DNA from: an uncultured Chloroflexia bacterium
Lineage (GTDB): Bacteria > Chloroflexota > Dehalococcoidia > UBA2979
Assembly: GCA_963728205.1 (NCBI GenBank)
Contig: CAVSIV010000006.1
Coordinates: forward strand, 830,831-894,830
Direction: 5' to 3'
DNA: 64,000 bases
The position numbers and the translations under genes were made by a program. How positions within the stretch are numbered: position 1 is the first letter of the stretch; each line of letters starts with the position of its first letter. Under the pieces are notes generated by a model. It had not been told where the DNA came from. It was given only the letters and a program-made list of their open reading frames with translations, and searched no databases. Below are positions 2,117 to 35,159 of the stretch, in pieces.

Positions 2117-2356
2117 ATGAAGACCGCCATCTCCCTGCCCGACGAGCTCTTCGAGGCCATGGAACAACTCGTTCGCCGCTCCGGTGGCAGCCGGAGCGAG
2201 CTGTACGCCTCCGCCCTCCGCGAGTACGTGCAGCGCCACTCGCCGGATGCGGTCACAGAGGCGATGAACGAGACCCTCCGCCAGCTGAACGGCGAGTCCG
2301 GCTACGACTTCAGCAGTACGGCAGCGCAACGCATCCTGGCGGACAGCGAGTGGTGA
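2117..2356 (+). CDS. mazE: ribbon-helix-helix antitoxin (MazE/CopG-like)
   Basis: 79 aa with N-terminus MKTAISLPDELFEAMEQLVRRSGGSRSELYASALREY. Its TGA stop overlaps the GTG of the next gene (GTGA). Confidence 0.75.
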   Translation: MKTAISLPDELFEAMEQLVRRSGGSRSELYASALREYVQRHSPDAVTEAMNETLRQLNGESGYDFSSTAAQRILADSEW

Positions 2357-2700
2357 TCTCGCAGGGCGAGATCTGGTGGGCGGACCTTCCCGCACCATCC
2401 GGGTCAGCGCCCGGCTTCCGTCGCCCCGTGCTGGTCGTCCAGGGCGACGACCTCAATCGCAGCGACCTCCGGACGGTGATCTGCGTCGCCCTCACCAGCA
2501 ACCTGCGGTGGGCAGGAGCACCGGGCAACGTCGTCCTTCCCGCCAGTACGTCCCGCCTCCCCAGGGATTCCGTGGTCAACGTCTCGCAGATCGTCACGCT
2601 CGATCGCGAGGCATTGACGGACCGGGTTGCGCGGATTCCACGACCAACGCTCGCGGTCGTGCTCGCGGGGATCGACGTCGCACTCGGAAAGCCGCGCTGA
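2353..2700 (+). CDS. mazF: PemK/MazF-family endoribonuclease toxin
   Basis: 115 aa from GTG 2353. ISQGEIWWADLP ... GFRRPVLVVQGD ... VICVALTSN ... VVNVSQIVTLD is the MazF fold signature. Confidence 0.85.
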   Translation: MISQGEIWWADLPAPSGSAPGFRRPVLVVQGDDLNRSDLRTVICVALTSNLRWAGAPGNVVLPASTSRLPRDSVVNVSQIVTLDREALTDRVARIPRPTLAVVLAGIDVALGKPR

Positions 2701-2742
2701 CCGGGGAGGTTGCCGGTCCCCCCGGCTGCCCGCCGCCGCGCG

Positions 2743-2913
2743 CCAAAGCGGCGTCAGACATGACGCCGACGGACCCGGCGGCGCGAGCCGCCTGGCGGGC
2801 CGCGATGACGCCGAGCGTCGCCTTCGGGGGAGGCGCGGGATGGTCCCCGCACCCGGGTTGGCGGCGGCCGAAGCGCCGCCGACCTGTCGGCGTCATGTCT
2901 GACGCCGCTTTGG
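2743..2913. repeat. double-hairpin palindromic element, subfamily B (REPIN-like)
   Basis: Arm CCAAAGCGGCGTCAGACATGACGCCGACGG (2743-2772) and its reverse complement (ending 2913) flank a spacer of about 110 nt. Each arm contains the hairpin CGGCGTCA-GACA-TGACGCCG. Confidence 0.85.
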
Positions 2914-3297
2914 TCGCGGGGGTATCGCCCTACTTCACGAGCACGACGACGATGTCGCCGTGGTTCGGCTCCCGCAGGCTCGAGGGGAGGCGCGGGATGG
3001 TCCCCGCACCCGGGTTGGCGGCGGCCGAAGCGCCGCCGACCTGTCGGCGTCATGTCTGACGCCGCTTTGGTCGCGGGGGTATCGCCCTACTTCGCGAGCA
3101 CGACGACGATGTCGCCGTGGTTCAGCTCCCGCAGGCTCGAGGGGAGGCGCGGGATGGTCCCCGCACCCGGGTTGGCGGCGGCCGAAGCGCCGCCGACCTG
3201 TCGGCGTCATGTCTGACGCCGCTTTGGGCGCGGGGTATCGCCCTACTTCACGAGCACGACGACGATGTCGCCGTGGTTCAGCTCCCGCAGGCTCGAG
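2828..3297. repeat. tandem triplication of a 157-bp unit (half palindromic element plus gene 3' end)
   Basis: Units start at 2828, 2985 and 3142 (157/157/156 bp, a few substitutions). Each unit contains the distal spacer, the right arm of the element, a 13-nt gap, the stop codon and the last 18 codons (SSLRE[L/P]NHGDIVVVLVK) of CDS 3243-3947. Only the third copy is joined to the gene. Confidence 0.9.
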
Positions 3298-3947
3298 ACG
3301 AAGTCCGGCGCCCCGGCGACGTACTGCCGCACCATCCCGCCCGAGACCCGGAACACGAGCTGCACCTGCCGCGGGATCGTCGCGACCGCATCCGCGATCG
3401 GCGTCGCGTCCGCGCCGTCCCACGTGAGGAGGCCGTAGCCGGACCCCGGCGGGAGCGCGCCGGTGAAGCCGCCGACCGCCACGACGTCGGTCGCCGCGGT
3501 GAGGTTCACCTGCTGCGGGGTCGTGCTCCACGTCGCGACCTGCGTCGCGGCGAGCCCCGGGTCCACCGCGCCGTACATCAGCAGGAAGCGCACGTCGTCG
3601 CCCGGCGCCGGGCAGCCGGCGTGGGTCTCCGACGACGCCACCGAGAGCATGTAGAACCCGCTGCCGGCGCCGGTCTTCGTGACGTCCGCGGTGCCGCAGA
3701 CGGCGGGCTCATGCCCCGGCGCGGCCGGACCCAGCGCGCGCACCTTCGACGGCAGCGCGCCCGACTGATCCGCGTAGACGAAACCGAAGATCGTCGACGC
3801 GCCCCCATCGGCCCGCGCGCGTCCCGCCGTCGCCGGCAGGAGCGCGCCGGCGACGAGCACCGCGGTCATGATTACCAGGATCGCCAGCGCGCGCGGACTG
3901 CGCGCAGCGCTACCGAGCCGACCGGTCCCGGCTCTCGAATCCATCAC
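3243..3947 (-). CDS. secreted hypothetical protein with the shared C-terminal module
   Basis: 234 aa with a signal peptide (ALAILVIMTAVLVAGALLPATAGRARA). The C-terminus YVAGAPDFVSSLRELNHGDIVVVLVK is related to the IPGAPAFVNA...VLVVK module of neighbouring surface proteins. Confidence 0.75.
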   Translation of the reverse strand: MMDSRAGTGRLGSAARSPRALAILVIMTAVLVAGALLPATAGRARADGGASTIFGFVYADQSGALPSKVRALGPAAPGHEPAVCGTADVTKTGAGSGFYMLSVASSETHAGCPAPGDDVRFLLMYGAVDPGLAATQVATWSTTPQQVNLTAATDVVAVGGFTGALPPGSGYGLLTWDGADATPIADAVATIPRQVQLVFRVSGGMVRQYVAGAPDFVSSLRELNHGDIVVVLVK

Positions 3948-4062
3948 ACCCGACCCCCGTCCGCCCCGGCGCAGTCGCGCGCGGAACGAGAAGATTGCGG
4001 AACCGGCCCCGCCGGCTCCCTTCCGCGTTCGACCCGTGGTCGTGTCGAGCGGGGAAGGGAGT

Positions 4063-4130
4063 CCCCGTCCCCTCCGAGGAGAGGACGGGGGTCCCGTTCA
4101 CGAACGTGCGCCGCTCGCGAGGAGCGGCGC
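4063..4130 (-). terminator. two GC-rich hairpins downstream of CDS 4148-4660
   Basis: GCGCCGCTC-GCGAG-GAGCGGCGC (4108-4130) and CCCCGTCC-N12-GGACGGGG (4063-4090) follow the stop codon on the minus strand. There is no U tract. Confidence 0.5.
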
Positions 4131-4147
4131 GCGCTCGAGCTGCGTGC

Positions 4148-4660
4148 CTAGCGGCGGCGCGTGGCGGCGCGAGCGCCACCGACCGCGATCACCGCGAAGG
4201 CGGCCAGCGCCAGCATCGAGGCGAGCCCCGTGCTGTGGCCGACCAGGAAGCCCGCGTTGCCGGTGCCGGCCGGGGCCGGAGCCGTGCTCGTGGCCGTCGG
4301 GGTCGCCGTGGCCGAGGCCGTCAGCGTGACACCGTTGGCAACGTTCGCCGGCGCGCCGCCGGCCTTGTAGGTCTCCTTGGCCGTGGTCGGGGCGCCGTTC
4401 AGCGTGAAGGTGAGCGTGTCACCGTCCGCCGGGCTGCAGGTCGCGTTGGACGCGATCTGGAGCTGCCACTGGCCGCTGGCGTCGGCCGTAGCCGTGCCGC
4501 AGGACTTGGCGCCGTCGAAGACCTCGACCTTGTCGCCGGCCTTGAGGCCGACGCCGTAGACCGTCATCGGGGGCACCTGCGCCGAGGCGATCGTCGCGAA
4601 CATCATGAGCGCGACGGCCGCGACGCCGAACGGCACCGCCATTTTCCGGAGAAGACTCAT
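4148..4660 (-). CDS. secreted protein with a C-terminal anchor-like or sorting-signal-like tail
   Basis: 170 aa from ATG 4658-4660 (RBS AAAGGAG). Signal peptide MSLLRKMAVPFGVAAVALMMFATIASAQ, then a T/P/A linker. The tail is GNAGFLVGHSTGLASMLALAAFAVIAVGGARAATRRR. Confidence 0.75.
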   Translation of the reverse strand: MSLLRKMAVPFGVAAVALMMFATIASAQVPPMTVYGVGLKAGDKVEVFDGAKSCGTATADASGQWQLQIASNATCSPADGDTLTFTLNGAPTTAKETYKAGGAPANVANGVTLTASATATPTATSTAPAPAGTGNAGFLVGHSTGLASMLALAAFAVIAVGGARAATRRR

Positions 4661-4796
4661 CTGCAAGAACTCCTTTGAGTTCTGACCCGCCCCTGGGTGG
4701 TTAGCCATCCGTCCCCCTCACGCTCGTGAGCGTCCGGCGGAGCTGGGTGGGTACGCGTGCCTCCCTCATCGCGAGATGGCCGGGAGGCGGAGACAA

Positions 4797-4833
4797 GGTT
4801 CACCCCCCGCCCCGAGAGGACGGGGGGTGAACC
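4797..4833 (-). terminator. hairpin terminator of the large surface-protein gene
   Basis: Perfect 13-bp stem GGTTCACCCCCCG / CGGGGGGTGAACC with an 11-nt loop, starting 10 nt after the TAA stop (4843-4845) on the minus strand. Confidence 0.6.
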
Positions 4834-4842
4834 GCTAGTCGC

Positions 4843-6660
4843 TTACTTGACGACGAGGACGATCGTGCCCGCCGGGACCTCGTTCGGGAAGGCGGCGTTG
4901 AACGCCGCGTTCACGAACGCCGGGGCGCCCGGGATGAGCACAACGGCCTGGCCGTTGACGAAGACCGTCACCGAGATGCCGCCCGCCGCGGAGACCGCGG
5001 ACGAGAGCTGGGCAACCGTGCCGCCGTTCCAGACCGCGGTGTTGACACCGACGTTCGGGATTGCGCGGTCAAAGGTGCCCGCGCCGGTCGTGCCGGTCGG
5101 GGTCGCCGTCGGCGTGGCCGCCGGGGCACCGACAGTGGCAACCGTCGAGTCAACGACGGAACCGGATGCGCTCGGGCACGTCGGGGCCGCAGAGGAACCG
5201 GTCTGAGCGGCGACCAAGACACTGCCCGAGGTACCGGTCAGTGCAGCCGTCGTGTTCGCCGTCCCGCTCGACGTGGTGCCGCACGCGACCGAAACAACAC
5301 CCTGGGTCGAGGGGATGTTAAAGGTCACGACGGTGCCGTTTGCGGCCATGTTGCCAGAGGCATCCACAACCGTCGCCGTCACCTTGTTGGCCGTCACTGC
5401 AGCAGTAACAGTTGCCGGCTTGCCAGCCGCCGTCACCGTCGCCGTCGCGGCCGGAACCGACGACGTCGTGATGTCAGTCGCGGTGATCGTCGCCGTGCCA
5501 AGCTGGGTGGCGGATGCGCAGTACGTGACGTACGCGTAGCCCGGCGTCCCGCTCAGCGAGGCCGTTGTCGCCGTGACCGCCTTGGCCGTAGTCGAGGTGG
5601 CCGGGGTTGCCAGACAAGCCGCGCTGGCGCCGCTCGCCAGGAAGCCCTTGTCCACCGAAACCTGCAGGAGCTGACCGTTGACGCCAGCACCCGTCGCGTC
5701 AGTGACGCGGAAAAGCACGTTCGTACCCGTGGTCGGCGACGTGTAGGACGCCGACGAGCTGCTGGCCGCAACGTTCGCGTCAGTGACCTTCACCGTCGTG
5801 AGGGTCGTCGGCGTCGTGCCGGTCGCAGCCTGCAGCGTCAGCGTCGTCGTGTCGACAGCGCTGAGCGACGGAACGGAGGCAACGATGGTGTCGCTACCCG
5901 ACGTCCCATTGCCCTTGTATGCGACCGACGCACAGCCGGTCGTCGCGTCCGTGAAGGAGCTCGCCGAGTTGGTGCCGGTCGCAACGAAGAGACCCAGGCT
6001 GCCAGTGAAGTTCACCTGCGTGGGAGCAGTGGGAACGGGCGAGACACAAGCCTTGATGGTCGACGCCTGCGCGCCGCTCGCAGCGATCGTTGCCGGGGTC
6101 GCGATGACTGAAACGGCGTTTGAGGTCGAAACAGTCAGCGCACCCGCAACCGGCGTACCGAAGGTACCAGCCGCACCGCCGCCGAGTGCGGACGTGATAT
6201 TGCCAGTGGCAGCAGTGGTGCTAATGGGCCGCACCTGAATGCCGGAGATGGTGACCGTGTCACCAGCGACATTCGCGGTAGTGGCCGTGCCGGTGGTAAT
6301 CGTGGCGGCCGCAACCGTAGCCGTTCCAGCGACGCCCGCGACTGTGCCGGTCGTGGTAACCGTCACGGTAGCCGCTGTATTGAACTCCCAGTCCGCGCTC
6401 GGCCGGGAAAGCACGATCGAGTCGCCAATCGCGATATCTCCGGTCGCACCGGTCGTGAACTTAGCGTCCGGCAGAGTCGTCCAGGCACCAGTCCCAGTCG
6501 TCGCGTTCGTTGCCAGCGAGATGGTGGCGCTGGCGGAGCTTGTCGTCGTCGCCGCCGCACTCGCCGTCCGCGCCGTTCCCGAAACGAGCAGCGCTACAGC
6601 GAGCACCAACGACGCGGCAACAGCAGAGCCGTACCACGCGTACTTCTTGAAAAGACTCAA
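4843..6660 (-). CDS. large secreted surface protein with Ig-like (Big_1-type) repeats and the shared C-terminal module
   Basis: TTG start at 6658-6660, 8 nt after GGAGGA; there is no in-frame ATG near the signal peptide LSLFKKYAWYGSAVAASLVLAVALLVSGTARTASA. 605 aa, T/A/S/G-rich, with invasin-like repeats such as VTATVVDASGNMAANGTVVTFNIPS. It ends VLIPGAPAFVNAAFNAAFPNEVPAGTIVLVVK. Confidence 0.8.
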   Translation of the reverse strand: MSLFKKYAWYGSAVAASLVLAVALLVSGTARTASAAATTTSSASATISLATNATTGTGAWTTLPDAKFTTGATGDIAIGDSIVLSRPSADWEFNTAATVTVTTTGTVAGVAGTATVAAATITTGTATTANVAGDTVTISGIQVRPISTTAATGNITSALGGGAAGTFGTPVAGALTVSTSNAVSVIATPATIAASGAQASTIKACVSPVPTAPTQVNFTGSLGLFVATGTNSASSFTDATTGCASVAYKGNGTSGSDTIVASVPSLSAVDTTTLTLQAATGTTPTTLTTVKVTDANVAASSSSASYTSPTTGTNVLFRVTDATGAGVNGQLLQVSVDKGFLASGASAACLATPATSTTAKAVTATTASLSGTPGYAYVTYCASATQLGTATITATDITTSSVPAATATVTAAGKPATVTAAVTANKVTATVVDASGNMAANGTVVTFNIPSTQGVVSVACGTTSSGTANTTAALTGTSGSVLVAAQTGSSAAPTCPSASGSVVDSTVATVGAPAATPTATPTGTTGAGTFDRAIPNVGVNTAVWNGGTVAQLSSAVSAAGGISVTVFVNGQAVVLIPGAPAFVNAAFNAAFPNEVPAGTIVLVVK

Positions 6661-7142
6661 AGCAGTTGTCCTCCAATTGAGAACGTTGTCACTCGATAAC
6701 ACGCACTTCGATTCTCTGCGATGCCTCCTCTCGCCGCGTCCGGCTCCTCCGTGAGGGGGAGCGCCCCGTTCCTGGCAGAACGGCGGCCGGCGAGCCTTCT
6801 TTCCAAGCGGTGCTGATACCGCCGCTCGAGCAAAACGCCACCAGCGCCGCTCGAAATCACGCTCGCTGCGAACCTTCGAAATCCGCGACGGGCGGCGTGG
6901 TCCAAGACACACACCTCACGCCACGAGACTTAGAACGCCCCCGGGCAAGACTGAGTTAACAGCGGGGGTGGGCCTGATACGCAGTAAAGAGGTAACCGGG
7001 CAAGACGAGTGGCGCGACCTGACGAACGCCCGCAGGTCGATCCCCTATCGGGAGCGCGCTAGCCGGTGACCGCGCGATCGGCGACGATCGTCCAAGCATT
7101 GATCTCAGCACGACGCCGGCGCACCTGAAGGAAGCGGCTGCC

Positions 7143-13195: not shown

Positions 13196-13999
13196 CTACT
13201 TGACGACCAGCACGATCGTGCCGGCGGGAACGGTCGAGGGATACGTCGCGTTGAACTCGGCGTTCACGAACGCCGGGGCGCCGGGGATCAGCACCTGGGC
13301 CTTGCCGTTGACGAAGACCGTCACCGAGATGCCCTGCGCCGCGAGCGTCGCGGACGCCATCTGCTGCACGGTGCCGCCCTGCCAGATCACGGGGTTGACG
13401 CCGACCGTGTCGATCGGGCGGTCGAACTTGCCGAGCAGGTTGACCGCAAGCGCGCTCAGGCTCGTGACGTCGGCGACGTCGTTCGTGCCGTTGGAGACCG
13501 TCGCGTCGCCGTCGAGCGAGATGCCGATCGTGCCGGAGGCGGTGTCGGCGGTGTCGGGCTGCACCTTGATGCCGGACAGCATGAGCGTGTCACCGGCGGC
13601 GGAGCCGGTGGTCACGTTCAGCACGATCTCGTGCTGCGTCGGGGTGACGGTGCCGGTGGCGGCGCCGCCGATCTGGAGCGTGCCGGTGCCGCCGACGGTG
13701 TAGGTGACCGGGGCGGAGGTGTCGAACGACCAGCCGGTCGGGGCCTCGATCTTGATGCCGTTGGCGGTGGTCATCTCGTTGCCGGTCGCCGTGATCGTGA
13801 TCGGCGTGAGCGCCGTGAAGGTGTTGGCGCCGGTCGCGGCGTTGGTCGTCGGCTGGATCACGGCGTCGGCGCGCGTGGTCACCGTCGGCGCCGCGGCCTG
13901 CGCGAGGCCGGGCGCGGCCGCGAGGAGCATGCCGGCCGAGGCCGCGAGTGCAGCGATGGCGGCGCCTCCGCGCCAGGTCCAGGTGCGCAGTCTGCTCAT
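13196..13999 (-). CDS. secreted surface protein with the shared C-terminal module
   Basis: 267 aa from ATG 13997-13999 (RBS GGAGAGGA). Signal peptide GGAAIAALAASAGMLLAAAPGLAQA. It ends GKFDRPIDTVGVNPVIWQGG ... VLIPGAPAFVNAEFNATYPSTVPAGTIVLVVK. Confidence 0.85.
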   Translation of the reverse strand: MSRLRTWTWRGGAAIAALAASAGMLLAAAPGLAQAAAPTVTTRADAVIQPTTNAATGANTFTALTPITITATGNEMTTANGIKIEAPTGWSFDTSAPVTYTVGGTGTLQIGGAATGTVTPTQHEIVLNVTTGSAAGDTLMLSGIKVQPDTADTASGTIGISLDGDATVSNGTNDVADVTSLSALAVNLLGKFDRPIDTVGVNPVIWQGGTVQQMASATLAAQGISVTVFVNGKAQVLIPGAPAFVNAEFNATYPSTVPAGTIVLVVK

Positions 14000-14046
14000 A
14001 GGTGCGTGGTTCCTCTCCTGTGGGTGGTTGCGCTGTCGAGGGTTCC

Positions 14047-14071
14047 AACGACGGCGGGAACGGGAGGGTTC
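14047..14071 (-). promoter_or_regulatory. ECF-type promoter candidate (GAAC-N17-CGTT)
   Basis: On the minus strand, GCGAAC (GAAC at 14068-14071), a 17-nt spacer, then CGTT (14047-14050), 48 nt upstream of the ATG at 13999. The leader length is nearly the same as at 695-720. Confidence 0.4.
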
Positions 14072-14127
14072 GCGCGAGATCGCGCGATCGTGCGGATCGA
14101 TAGGGAATCGATAGGGGCGCATCGCCG

Positions 14128-14224
14128 CCACAGCGGCGGCAGACATGCCGCCGACAGGGACGCGGCGCCAGCCGCGCGGACCGGCGTCCGCGTGCTGTCG
14201 GCGGCATGTCTGCCGCCGCTGTGG
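14128..14224. repeat. double-hairpin palindromic element, subfamily A
   Basis: Both 30-nt arms are intact. It lies 79 nt upstream of the transposase-like ORF. Confidence 0.9.
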
Positions 14225-14302
14225 TTCGCGCAGGTCACCTTGCGGGCGGTGGCCGTCAAGCCTGACGGCGACGGGAATGCGCTCGGCCGCCACCCTGTGC
14301 AC

Positions 14303-14857
14303 ATGGACCGGTACTGGCTGCTCACCTGGACGACGTATGGCACGTGGCTCCCCGGCGATCCCCGCGGCTCCACGCTGCGCGTCCCCGACGTGGACGGCGA
14401 CGGACGCTCGCGGACGTTCCTTCGGCTGAAGGGCGAGGGCGGCCGCGCCCGCGGGCTCGCCCGCAGCGCGGCGCGGCGGATGACGGGGCCGCCGGCGCGG
14501 CTCACGGCGGACGAGGCGCGGGTCGTCCTGGACGAGATCCGCTCGCAGGCGCGCTTCCGGCGATGGGCGCTGCCGGCATGCGCGGTGATGGCGAATCACG
14601 TCCACGCCGTCGTGGGACTCGGCCCGGATGAGGAGCCGTCGCGCGCGCTGCACGCGTTCAAGGCGTACGCGAGCCGCGCGCTGAACGACCGCCGCGGACG
14701 ACCGGCGGGAGGCACGTGGTGGACGCAGTCGGGATCCACGCAGCGGCTGCGATGGGAGGCGAACGGCGTCGCCGCCGTGCGCTACGTGCGCGAGCAGCCC
14801 TACCCGCTCGCGGTCTGGATCGCACCGGGCGTCGACCCAACCGGCGGCGGTGGCTGA
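14303..14857 (+). CDS. Y1 (HUH) tyrosine transposase-like protein, REP-associated (RAYT-like)
   Basis: 184 aa. MDRYWLLTWTTYGTWLPGDPRG, the HUH motif in VMANHVHAVVG, and the C-terminal Tyr motif AVRYVREQPYP. These are the layout of IS200/IS605-type TnpA and RAYT proteins. Confidence 0.75.
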   Translation: MDRYWLLTWTTYGTWLPGDPRGSTLRVPDVDGDGRSRTFLRLKGEGGRARGLARSAARRMTGPPARLTADEARVVLDEIRSQARFRRWALPACAVMANHVHAVVGLGPDEEPSRALHAFKAYASRALNDRRGRPAGGTWWTQSGSTQRLRWEANGVAAVRYVREQPYPLAVWIAPGVDPTGGGG

Positions 14858-14893
14858 CGGGGCGCCGGGCGGCGATCGCCGACACGCCGCCAC

Positions 14894-15010
14894 CCACAGT
14901 CGCCACCCACAGTCGCCAGCCACAGTCGGTACCCACAGTCGCCACCCACAGTCGCCACCCACAGTCGCCACCCACAGTCGCCAGCCACAGTCGCCACCCA
15001 CAGTCGCGAA
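14894..15010. repeat. 9 tandem copies of a 13-bp unit CCACAGTCGCCA(C/G) abutting a palindromic element
   Basis: CACAGT recurs every 13 nt from 14895 to 14999. The next period lands on the first bases (CCACAGCGGCGGC) of the element at 15011. A period of 13 is not compatible with coding. Confidence 0.9.
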
Positions 15011-34990: not shown

Positions 34991-35000
34991 GCGGCCCCGG

Positions 35001-35058
35001 CCACAGCGGCGGCAGACATGCCGCCGACCTGTCGGCGGCATGTCTGCCGCCGCTGTGG
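35001..35058. repeat. minimal palindromic element: the two 28-nt arms joined by a 2-nt loop
   Basis: CCACAGCGGCGGCAGACATGCCGCCGAC-CT-GTCGGCGGCATGTCTGCCGCCGCTGTGG, a perfect 28-bp inverted repeat that lacks the usual spacer. Confidence 0.9.
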
Positions 35059-35159
35059 GACTGGCGGATCGGGGAAACCCCGACGTGGAGACGCTCCCCG
35101 CCTGTCGAACATCCCCACAACGGCAGGGCCCGCACCCACCCGTGGGGAGGATTCGCCTG

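Follow-up and report, generated by a model that had tools for sequence, protein, structure and literature searches.

How did the last codons of a protein-coding gene, together with one side of a palindromic element, come to stand three times in a row between two convergent genes? The locus lies near the start of the window, as we call the whole stretch of 64,000 nucleotides analyzed here, which comes from a Chloroflexota (Dehalococcoidia-labeled) metagenome-assembled genome (MAG) of 4.13 Mb with 72% G+C in 6 contigs (89% complete, 5.6% contamination). The ribosomal protein L2 of this genome is closest (72–77%) to those of MAGs labeled Chloroflexi or Dehalococcoidia. On one side of the spacer stand an RHH antitoxin gene (2024-2356; Pfam PF01402) and a MazF/PemK-type toxin gene (2353-2700, plus strand; Pfam PF02452, E = 1.2e-23), the latter convergent with the gene opposite and ending with its stop codon 43 nt before the left arm of the palindrome. 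On the other side, the minus strand carries a gene for a secreted or membrane-anchored protein (3243-3947; 234 aa; crude GC3 call, 0.96), for which the likely start gives 208 aa (3243-3869) and no Pfam family was matched. The C-terminal module of this protein (GAPDFV...GDIVVVLVK) is common to paralogues encoded at 4843-6912 and 13196-15001. The gene also belongs to a cluster of three genes for signal-peptide proteins without Pfam families (about 689, 186, and 234 aa; 3243-6912), the first and third of which share the C-terminal module W-x-G ... GAP-x-FV ... G-x-IV-x-V-x-V-K/R.

Tandem Repeats Finder (TRF) placed a head-to-tail array at 2827-3297 in the assembly sequence, with a period of 157 nt, 3.0 copies, 98% matches, and a score of 914, in agreement with the triplication that a first-pass annotation had read from the letters alone. 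The unit starts given in that annotation (2828, 2985, and 3142) are as valid as those of TRF because one G is shared at the join. Alignment of the units, which are 157, 157, and 156 nt long, revealed the same order of parts in each: 33–34 nt of unique centre, a whole tight REP doublet composed of a degenerate inner arm and an intact outer arm, a gap of 15–16 nt, and the stop codon with 17 codons of the gene, so that non-REP DNA contributes 33 nt from the unique centre and 70 nt from the gene-side flank to each unit. Unit 1 (2827-2983; 157 nt) comprises the 33–34-nt centre, the inner arm at 2861-2884, the outer arm at 2886-2913, a 16-nt gap, and an orphan gene end at 2930-2983. In unit 2 (2984-3140; 157 nt), the outer arm lies at 3043-3070 and a second orphan gene end at 3087-3140, and in unit 3 (3141-3297; 156 nt plus the shared G), the outer arm at 3200-3227 is followed by a 15-nt gap and the true gene end at 3243-3296. 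Measured from the 28-nt arm, the gap therefore spans 16 nt in the first two units and 15 nt in the third, rather than the 13 nt first reported.

The units differ from one another at four private positions in a star-like pattern. An A>G change in unit 1 turns leucine into proline in the former reading frame (C-terminus SSLREPNHGDIVVVLVK), another A>G change in unit 2 turns valine into alanine (SSLRELNHGDIVVVLAK), and unit 3, which is joined to the gene (SSLRELNHGDIVVVLVK), carries two differences within the arm-to-stop gap, a T>G change and a G run shortened by 1 nt; all three C-termini end at a stop codon. The first-pass annotation had thus correctly recognized the two orphan C-termini and the proline in unit 1 but had missed the change in the second orphan. 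Copying of the units at nearly the same time, with later drift, would explain the four differences, and so would, equally well, two steps in which a changed distal copy was duplicated again.

The parental breakpoints of the array lie at 2826/2827 on the left (CCTTCG/GGGGAGG) and at 3296/3297 on the right (GCTCGA/GACGAAG), and their in-register homology amounts to a single G. A microhomology-mediated join, proposed earlier on the strength of similar short sequences at the boundaries, is not supported in that form, given that only 1 nt is common in register (CCTTCG/G versus CTCGA/G) and that the GGGAGG seen at each boundary is merely the start of the unit. The 115-nt spacer that separates the intact arms (2771-2885) has its midpoint no more than 1 nt from the left breakpoint, a match that was spotted post hoc and has a chance probability of about 3%. 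We treat it as a coincidence because three other arrays in which one arm faces many do not share it, and a breakpoint at the spacer midpoint was not seen as a general rule in those three.

Insertion with target-site duplication, as in MITE-like elements, was considered and rejected, as n inserts would leave n+1 targets and the locus has three hairpin blocks and three gene ends. Moreover, the distal hairpin block runs directly into the unique centre and the left doublet. Because the blocks equal the gene ends in number and the distal block continues into the palindrome, the array is read as a duplicated local segment and not as a product of insertion.

The palindrome itself is compound. Its left REP arm (2743-2770) is single and intact, has the T/A compensatory variant GGCGTCA..TGACGCC, and is 100% complementary over 28 nt to 2886-2913, 3043-3070, and 3200-3227 in our repeat search, which bears out the earlier description of one left arm facing three right arms. 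Next to it, the degenerate inner arm of the left doublet (approximately 2773-2795) could be aligned to a tight REPIN at 34994-35064, and the centre of the palindrome (about 2796-2860), which holds the left breakpoint, was found by blastn at this locus only within the genome. For each side of the palindrome (2743-2795 and 2861-2913), the alignment is to an entire tight doublet, for instance that at 35001-35058, with the inner arm degenerate. What the first-pass annotation took for half an element thus amounts to an entire doublet with 33 nt of the unique centre attached; a single side was indeed copied, but that side is complete in itself. The variant stem core GGCGTCA...TGACGCC occurs four times genome-wide, always at this locus, and its confinement to these four arms indicates that the variant predates the triplication.

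As single-stranded DNA, the whole element is predicted to fold with −92 kcal/mol (z = −7.8), and each unit, taken as RNA of the gene's strand, with −63 kcal/mol (z = −4). The predicted RNA module per unit is closed, with an outer 10-bp stem around two hairpins, and the T>G change in unit 3 would convert a mismatch of that outer stem into a pair (CCCCGCACCC / GGGCGCGGGG; 3228-3237 versus 2914-2925 and 3071-3082). No intrinsic terminator consisting of a G+C-rich stem-loop and a U tract was found on either strand in 2300-4300, the promoter and terminator scan at the locus returned nothing, and Rfam covariance models yielded zero matches at gathering score across the whole window. The three self-contained, strongly folding 3' UTR modules may affect termination or mRNA stability, as judged from these models, with no sign of selection.

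The palindrome belongs to a REP/REPIN-type family with a Y1 enzyme. Its arm core GGCGGCATGTCTGCCGCCGCT and close variants are present in hundreds of copies in the genome (607–776 by loose patterns), with 687 oriented arm matches genome-wide, 658 of them non-overlapping. An arm 24-mer (≤1 mismatch) gave 442 matches in the genome versus 0 for the reversed control, and 163 convergent left-to-right arm pairs lie within 150 nt of each other. By a crude GC3-based ORF call with rough gene limits, 44% of the arms lie inside ORFs, which cover 79% of the genome, numbers that hint at a depletion of arms in genes. Seven matches to Pfam Y1_Tnp (PF01797) provide candidates for a cognate transposase; among them, the ORF ending at 14857 in the window scores 26.1 bits against a cut-off of 23 bits, has the motifs HVH and Y-x3-Q, and is flanked by doublets, those upstream being located at 14128-14224. 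The same 24-mer (≤1 mismatch) was absent from 29 of the 30 relatives searched, which include three species of the same genus, and the remaining one, a same-genus genome, has a single one-mismatch match. The REP family thus appears to be a recent, species-level expansion.

Homologues of the secreted protein are few and comprise P0002 (44% identity), P0003 (labeled "Chloroflexi bacterium"), and a protein of a same-genus genome (G001:C275). Each of them has a single C-terminus that ends at its stop codon (GDIVVIRVR, GDLIMVRFR, and, in G001, LRELHHGDVVVVLVK), and neither L016 nor G001:C275, which hold the P0002 and G001 homologues, carries a repeat or a REP arm downstream of the stop. The earlier proposal that a gene 3' end had been copied along with one side of the palindrome is supported, and the direction of copying, from the gene end into the spacer, is confirmed by this conserved C-terminus in three homologues and by the repeat-free downstream DNA in two of them. 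The gene end is thus ancestral and was copied outward, and the array is younger than the divergence from the nearest species sampled. Gene order in the cluster of three (689, 186, and 234 aa) is conserved in L016 and G001, and counterparts of its members lie at 228-3651 in L016 and at 1046-2761 in L018. Among 40 relatives searched, none had the locus at more than 71% identity; an exact 33-mer of the unit was absent from the metagenome contig and genome contig collections, and no record of the exact 3243-3947 protein was found.

Expression of the orphan gene ends was also considered and rejected. Their frame holds no ORF of at least 30 aa with a start codon, a stop codon occurs in frame 39 codons before orphan 2, which has no usable start codon, and read-through of the real gene's stop would end after 11 codons. 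Judged by their sequence, both extra gene ends are dead copies that cannot be translated, and each has acquired one amino-acid-changing substitution since it was made.

Tandem amplification at these hairpins acts throughout the genome. In a TRF search of the whole genome, 23 of the 86 non-overlapping arrays with a period of at least 50 nt carried REP arms, compared with a chance expectation, under random placement of the same unit lengths, of 0.75 genome-wide and of 1.9 (maximum of 7 in 300 trials) in crude non-coding space. Runs of at least three arms in the same orientation likewise number 23, have periods of 27–100 nt, and hold 154 of the 658 arms. The layout of one arm facing many recurs in several arrays, among them C6:830199-830623, C6:1655424, and C6:184462. 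The first of these, about 200 nt before the window, is an array of 87 nt × 4.9 in which one left arm (GACGCC variant) faces five right arms. About 8–9 kb before the window, an 860-bp arm-only array (C6:821784-822643) contains 32 direct arms with an exact 27-nt period. A second array that overlaps the end of a gene is C2:2116-2715. This array and its inverted twin at C2:11877-12476 are REP arrays with units of 95–100 nt that overlap the end of a DinB_2/mycothiol-S-transferase-like gene; the last three units of the former hold the DinB_2 stop codon and the last 4–6 codons (G-E/D-A-R-G), and the array sits in a contig end of poor quality. A third candidate for the capture of a gene end, C6:629753, was set aside since its ORF tail resembles REP-derived sequence and may be non-coding.

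Taken together, the triplicate 157-nt array is probably a real, lineage-specific tandem amplification that was formed in place by local duplication. The ancestral spacer between the convergent MazF and secreted-protein genes would have held a compound palindrome, in which about 65 nt of unique DNA separated two opposed tight doublets of REP/REPIN type. A first event would have duplicated head to tail a 157-nt segment that ran from position 2827 in the centre to 54 nt inside the gene (3296/3297) and spanned the gene-proximal doublet and the 16-nt gap. Its join would have been illegitimate, with 1 nt of common sequence, and most likely caused by replication stalling or template switching in this hairpin-rich stretch of 72% G+C. 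With two identical 157-nt copies in place, ordinary unequal exchange or slippage would then have added the third. Duplication that ran outward from the intact gene copy accounts for the gene having kept its full reading frame.

The abundance of such arrays raises the question of whether the elements themselves make them. Under this alternative, a Y1 (HUH) transposase, or processing of the hairpins by the host through cleavage at the loop tip and repair from the sister copy, produces the tandem copies, which are then a by-product of REP biology and not of generic slippage. TnpA-REP cleaves and rejoins REPs in vitro (background of PMC6006769), and the strong excess of arrays at arms (at least 12-fold enrichment) is compatible with an element-encoded activity, as are the many array periods (27–157 nt), the frequent amplification of one arm of a pair, and the left breakpoint at the spacer midpoint, which might mean cleavage at the hairpin tip rather than slippage. 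However, the breakpoints are located in unique DNA at distances of 33 nt and 70 nt from the doublet rather than at the hairpin foot, so that their positions do not support Y1 cleavage at the foot as the source of the joins. The joins share no motif, the array start is off the spacer midpoint in the three other arrays where one arm faces many, and hairpin-rich DNA is known to provoke slippage by itself. We therefore consider element-driven copying unlikely as the origin of the array, and it is equally doubtful that the hairpins drive a dedicated amplification, by Y1 or by cleavage at the tip of the extruded hairpin, that regularly copies one doublet side with its neighbors, including gene ends.

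Alternatively, selection might have kept the three stacked hairpin modules, as a means to end or insulate transcription where the toxin-antitoxin operon and the secreted-protein gene converge or to stabilize the mRNA of the latter. REP hairpins of Escherichia coli act as mRNA stabilizers and as aids to termination, each unit here is predicted to fold strongly into a closed structure that starts about 15 nt after the stop codon, and it is the gene-proximal unit whose T>G change turns the outer-stem mismatch into a pair. Yet there is neither a U-tract terminator nor an Rfam match, the relatives manage without any repeat, the copied 54 nt of coding sequence have no obvious role in such a module, and conservation cannot be shown in a single genome, which together make a selected 3' end module very unlikely. 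Noisy long-read mis-assembly, or the mixing of strains in the metagenome bin, could also have created the duplication or its number of units. The completeness and contamination of the MAG stated above leave room for such errors, one of the differences between units is a homopolymer length, and contig C2 opens with a 7.3-kb foldback of 94% identity. In C2:1-14577, the first 7.3 kb are the reverse complement of the next 7.3 kb, which looks like a chimeric noisy long read left at the contig end. Given these signs of long-read noise in the assembly, consensus errors could account for the G-run indel and even for the A/G differences from unit to unit. Such an error is much less likely for the existence of the 471-nt array, while the copy number is that given by the assembly. 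Against an artefact, long reads easily span 471 nt, each unit has private differences, the genome contains over 20 comparable arrays at other loci, and the flanking genes are intact and collinear with their homologues; we regard this explanation as extremely unlikely. In-place duplication of a local segment accordingly remains our preferred reading.

Tandem chromosomal duplications associated with REPs occur in the Salmonella his region, where the joins fall inside two distant REPs and the segments measure many kilobases, in contrast to the present locus, with its joins in unique DNA and a segment of 157 nt. Closer precedents exist, given that the tandem reiteration of REP/REPIN clusters together with flanking DNA has already been described (PMC3116915, PMC3733652). 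With near-identical head-to-tail units that each contain REPs and non-REP flank, the array is a clear member of this known kind and an ordinary local tandem duplication. Bertels and Rainey (2011) inferred a second, non-transpositional mechanism of formation for REPIN clusters in Pseudomonas fluorescens SBW25 (PMC3116915). Like the REPINs of SBW25, the family described here is of high copy number, forms doublets, and is linked to Y1 transposases (PMC3116915); unlike in the SBW25 clusters, 54 nt of coding sequence belong to the repeated flank, only one side of a compound palindrome is present in the unit, and the arms, of unrelated sequence, are those of a Chloroflexota MAG (PMC3116915). For the GTAG/CGTC-tagged families, Di Nocera et al. 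(2013) reported that REPs are often adjacent to the ends of genes or overlap them and can provide the stop codon (PMC3733652). By comparison with the REP clusters of those families, the arm foot here reads GTCGGCGGC...GCCGCCGCTGTGG, and the stop codon was copied along with the flank instead of being supplied by the REP (PMC3733652).

As in the BIMEs of E. coli and the TnpA-REP REPtron, in which the gene of a domesticated Y1 enzyme is flanked by its own repeats, clusters of hairpin repeats occupy the 3' intergenic DNA between genes (background of PMC6006769). BIMEs alternate arm orientation with defined linker types, whereas here the duplication of an entire local segment has left the repeated arms in direct orientation. 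Quentin et al. (2018) described class 3 TnpA_Y1 genes with flanking "atypical" hairpins, of which Solibacter usitatus has about 600 copies, and reported this class mainly from Planctomycetes, Acidobacteria, and Proteobacteria (PMC6006769). The Y1 gene in the window resembles class 3 in being flanked by hairpins that are present in hundreds of genome copies, and the likeness lies in these flanking hairpins, its Pfam Y1_Tnp match being weak (26 bits; PMC6006769).

The locus extends to the Chloroflexota a phenomenon known mainly from Proteobacteria and does not represent a new kind of system; a further addition is that the repeated flank includes recognizable coding sequence. If hairpin-driven amplification were true, the locus would be a snapshot of the birth of a REP cluster, with a breakpoint at the midpoint and three datable units, and it would mean that small repeats can remodel the 3' ends of genes without breaking the genes. 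The array is also a small natural marker, the unit number of which is likely to vary between strains. Above all, the coding piece within the unit and the single-copy ancestral state in relatives show that REP clusters in this genome grow by duplication in place and not by repeated insertion.
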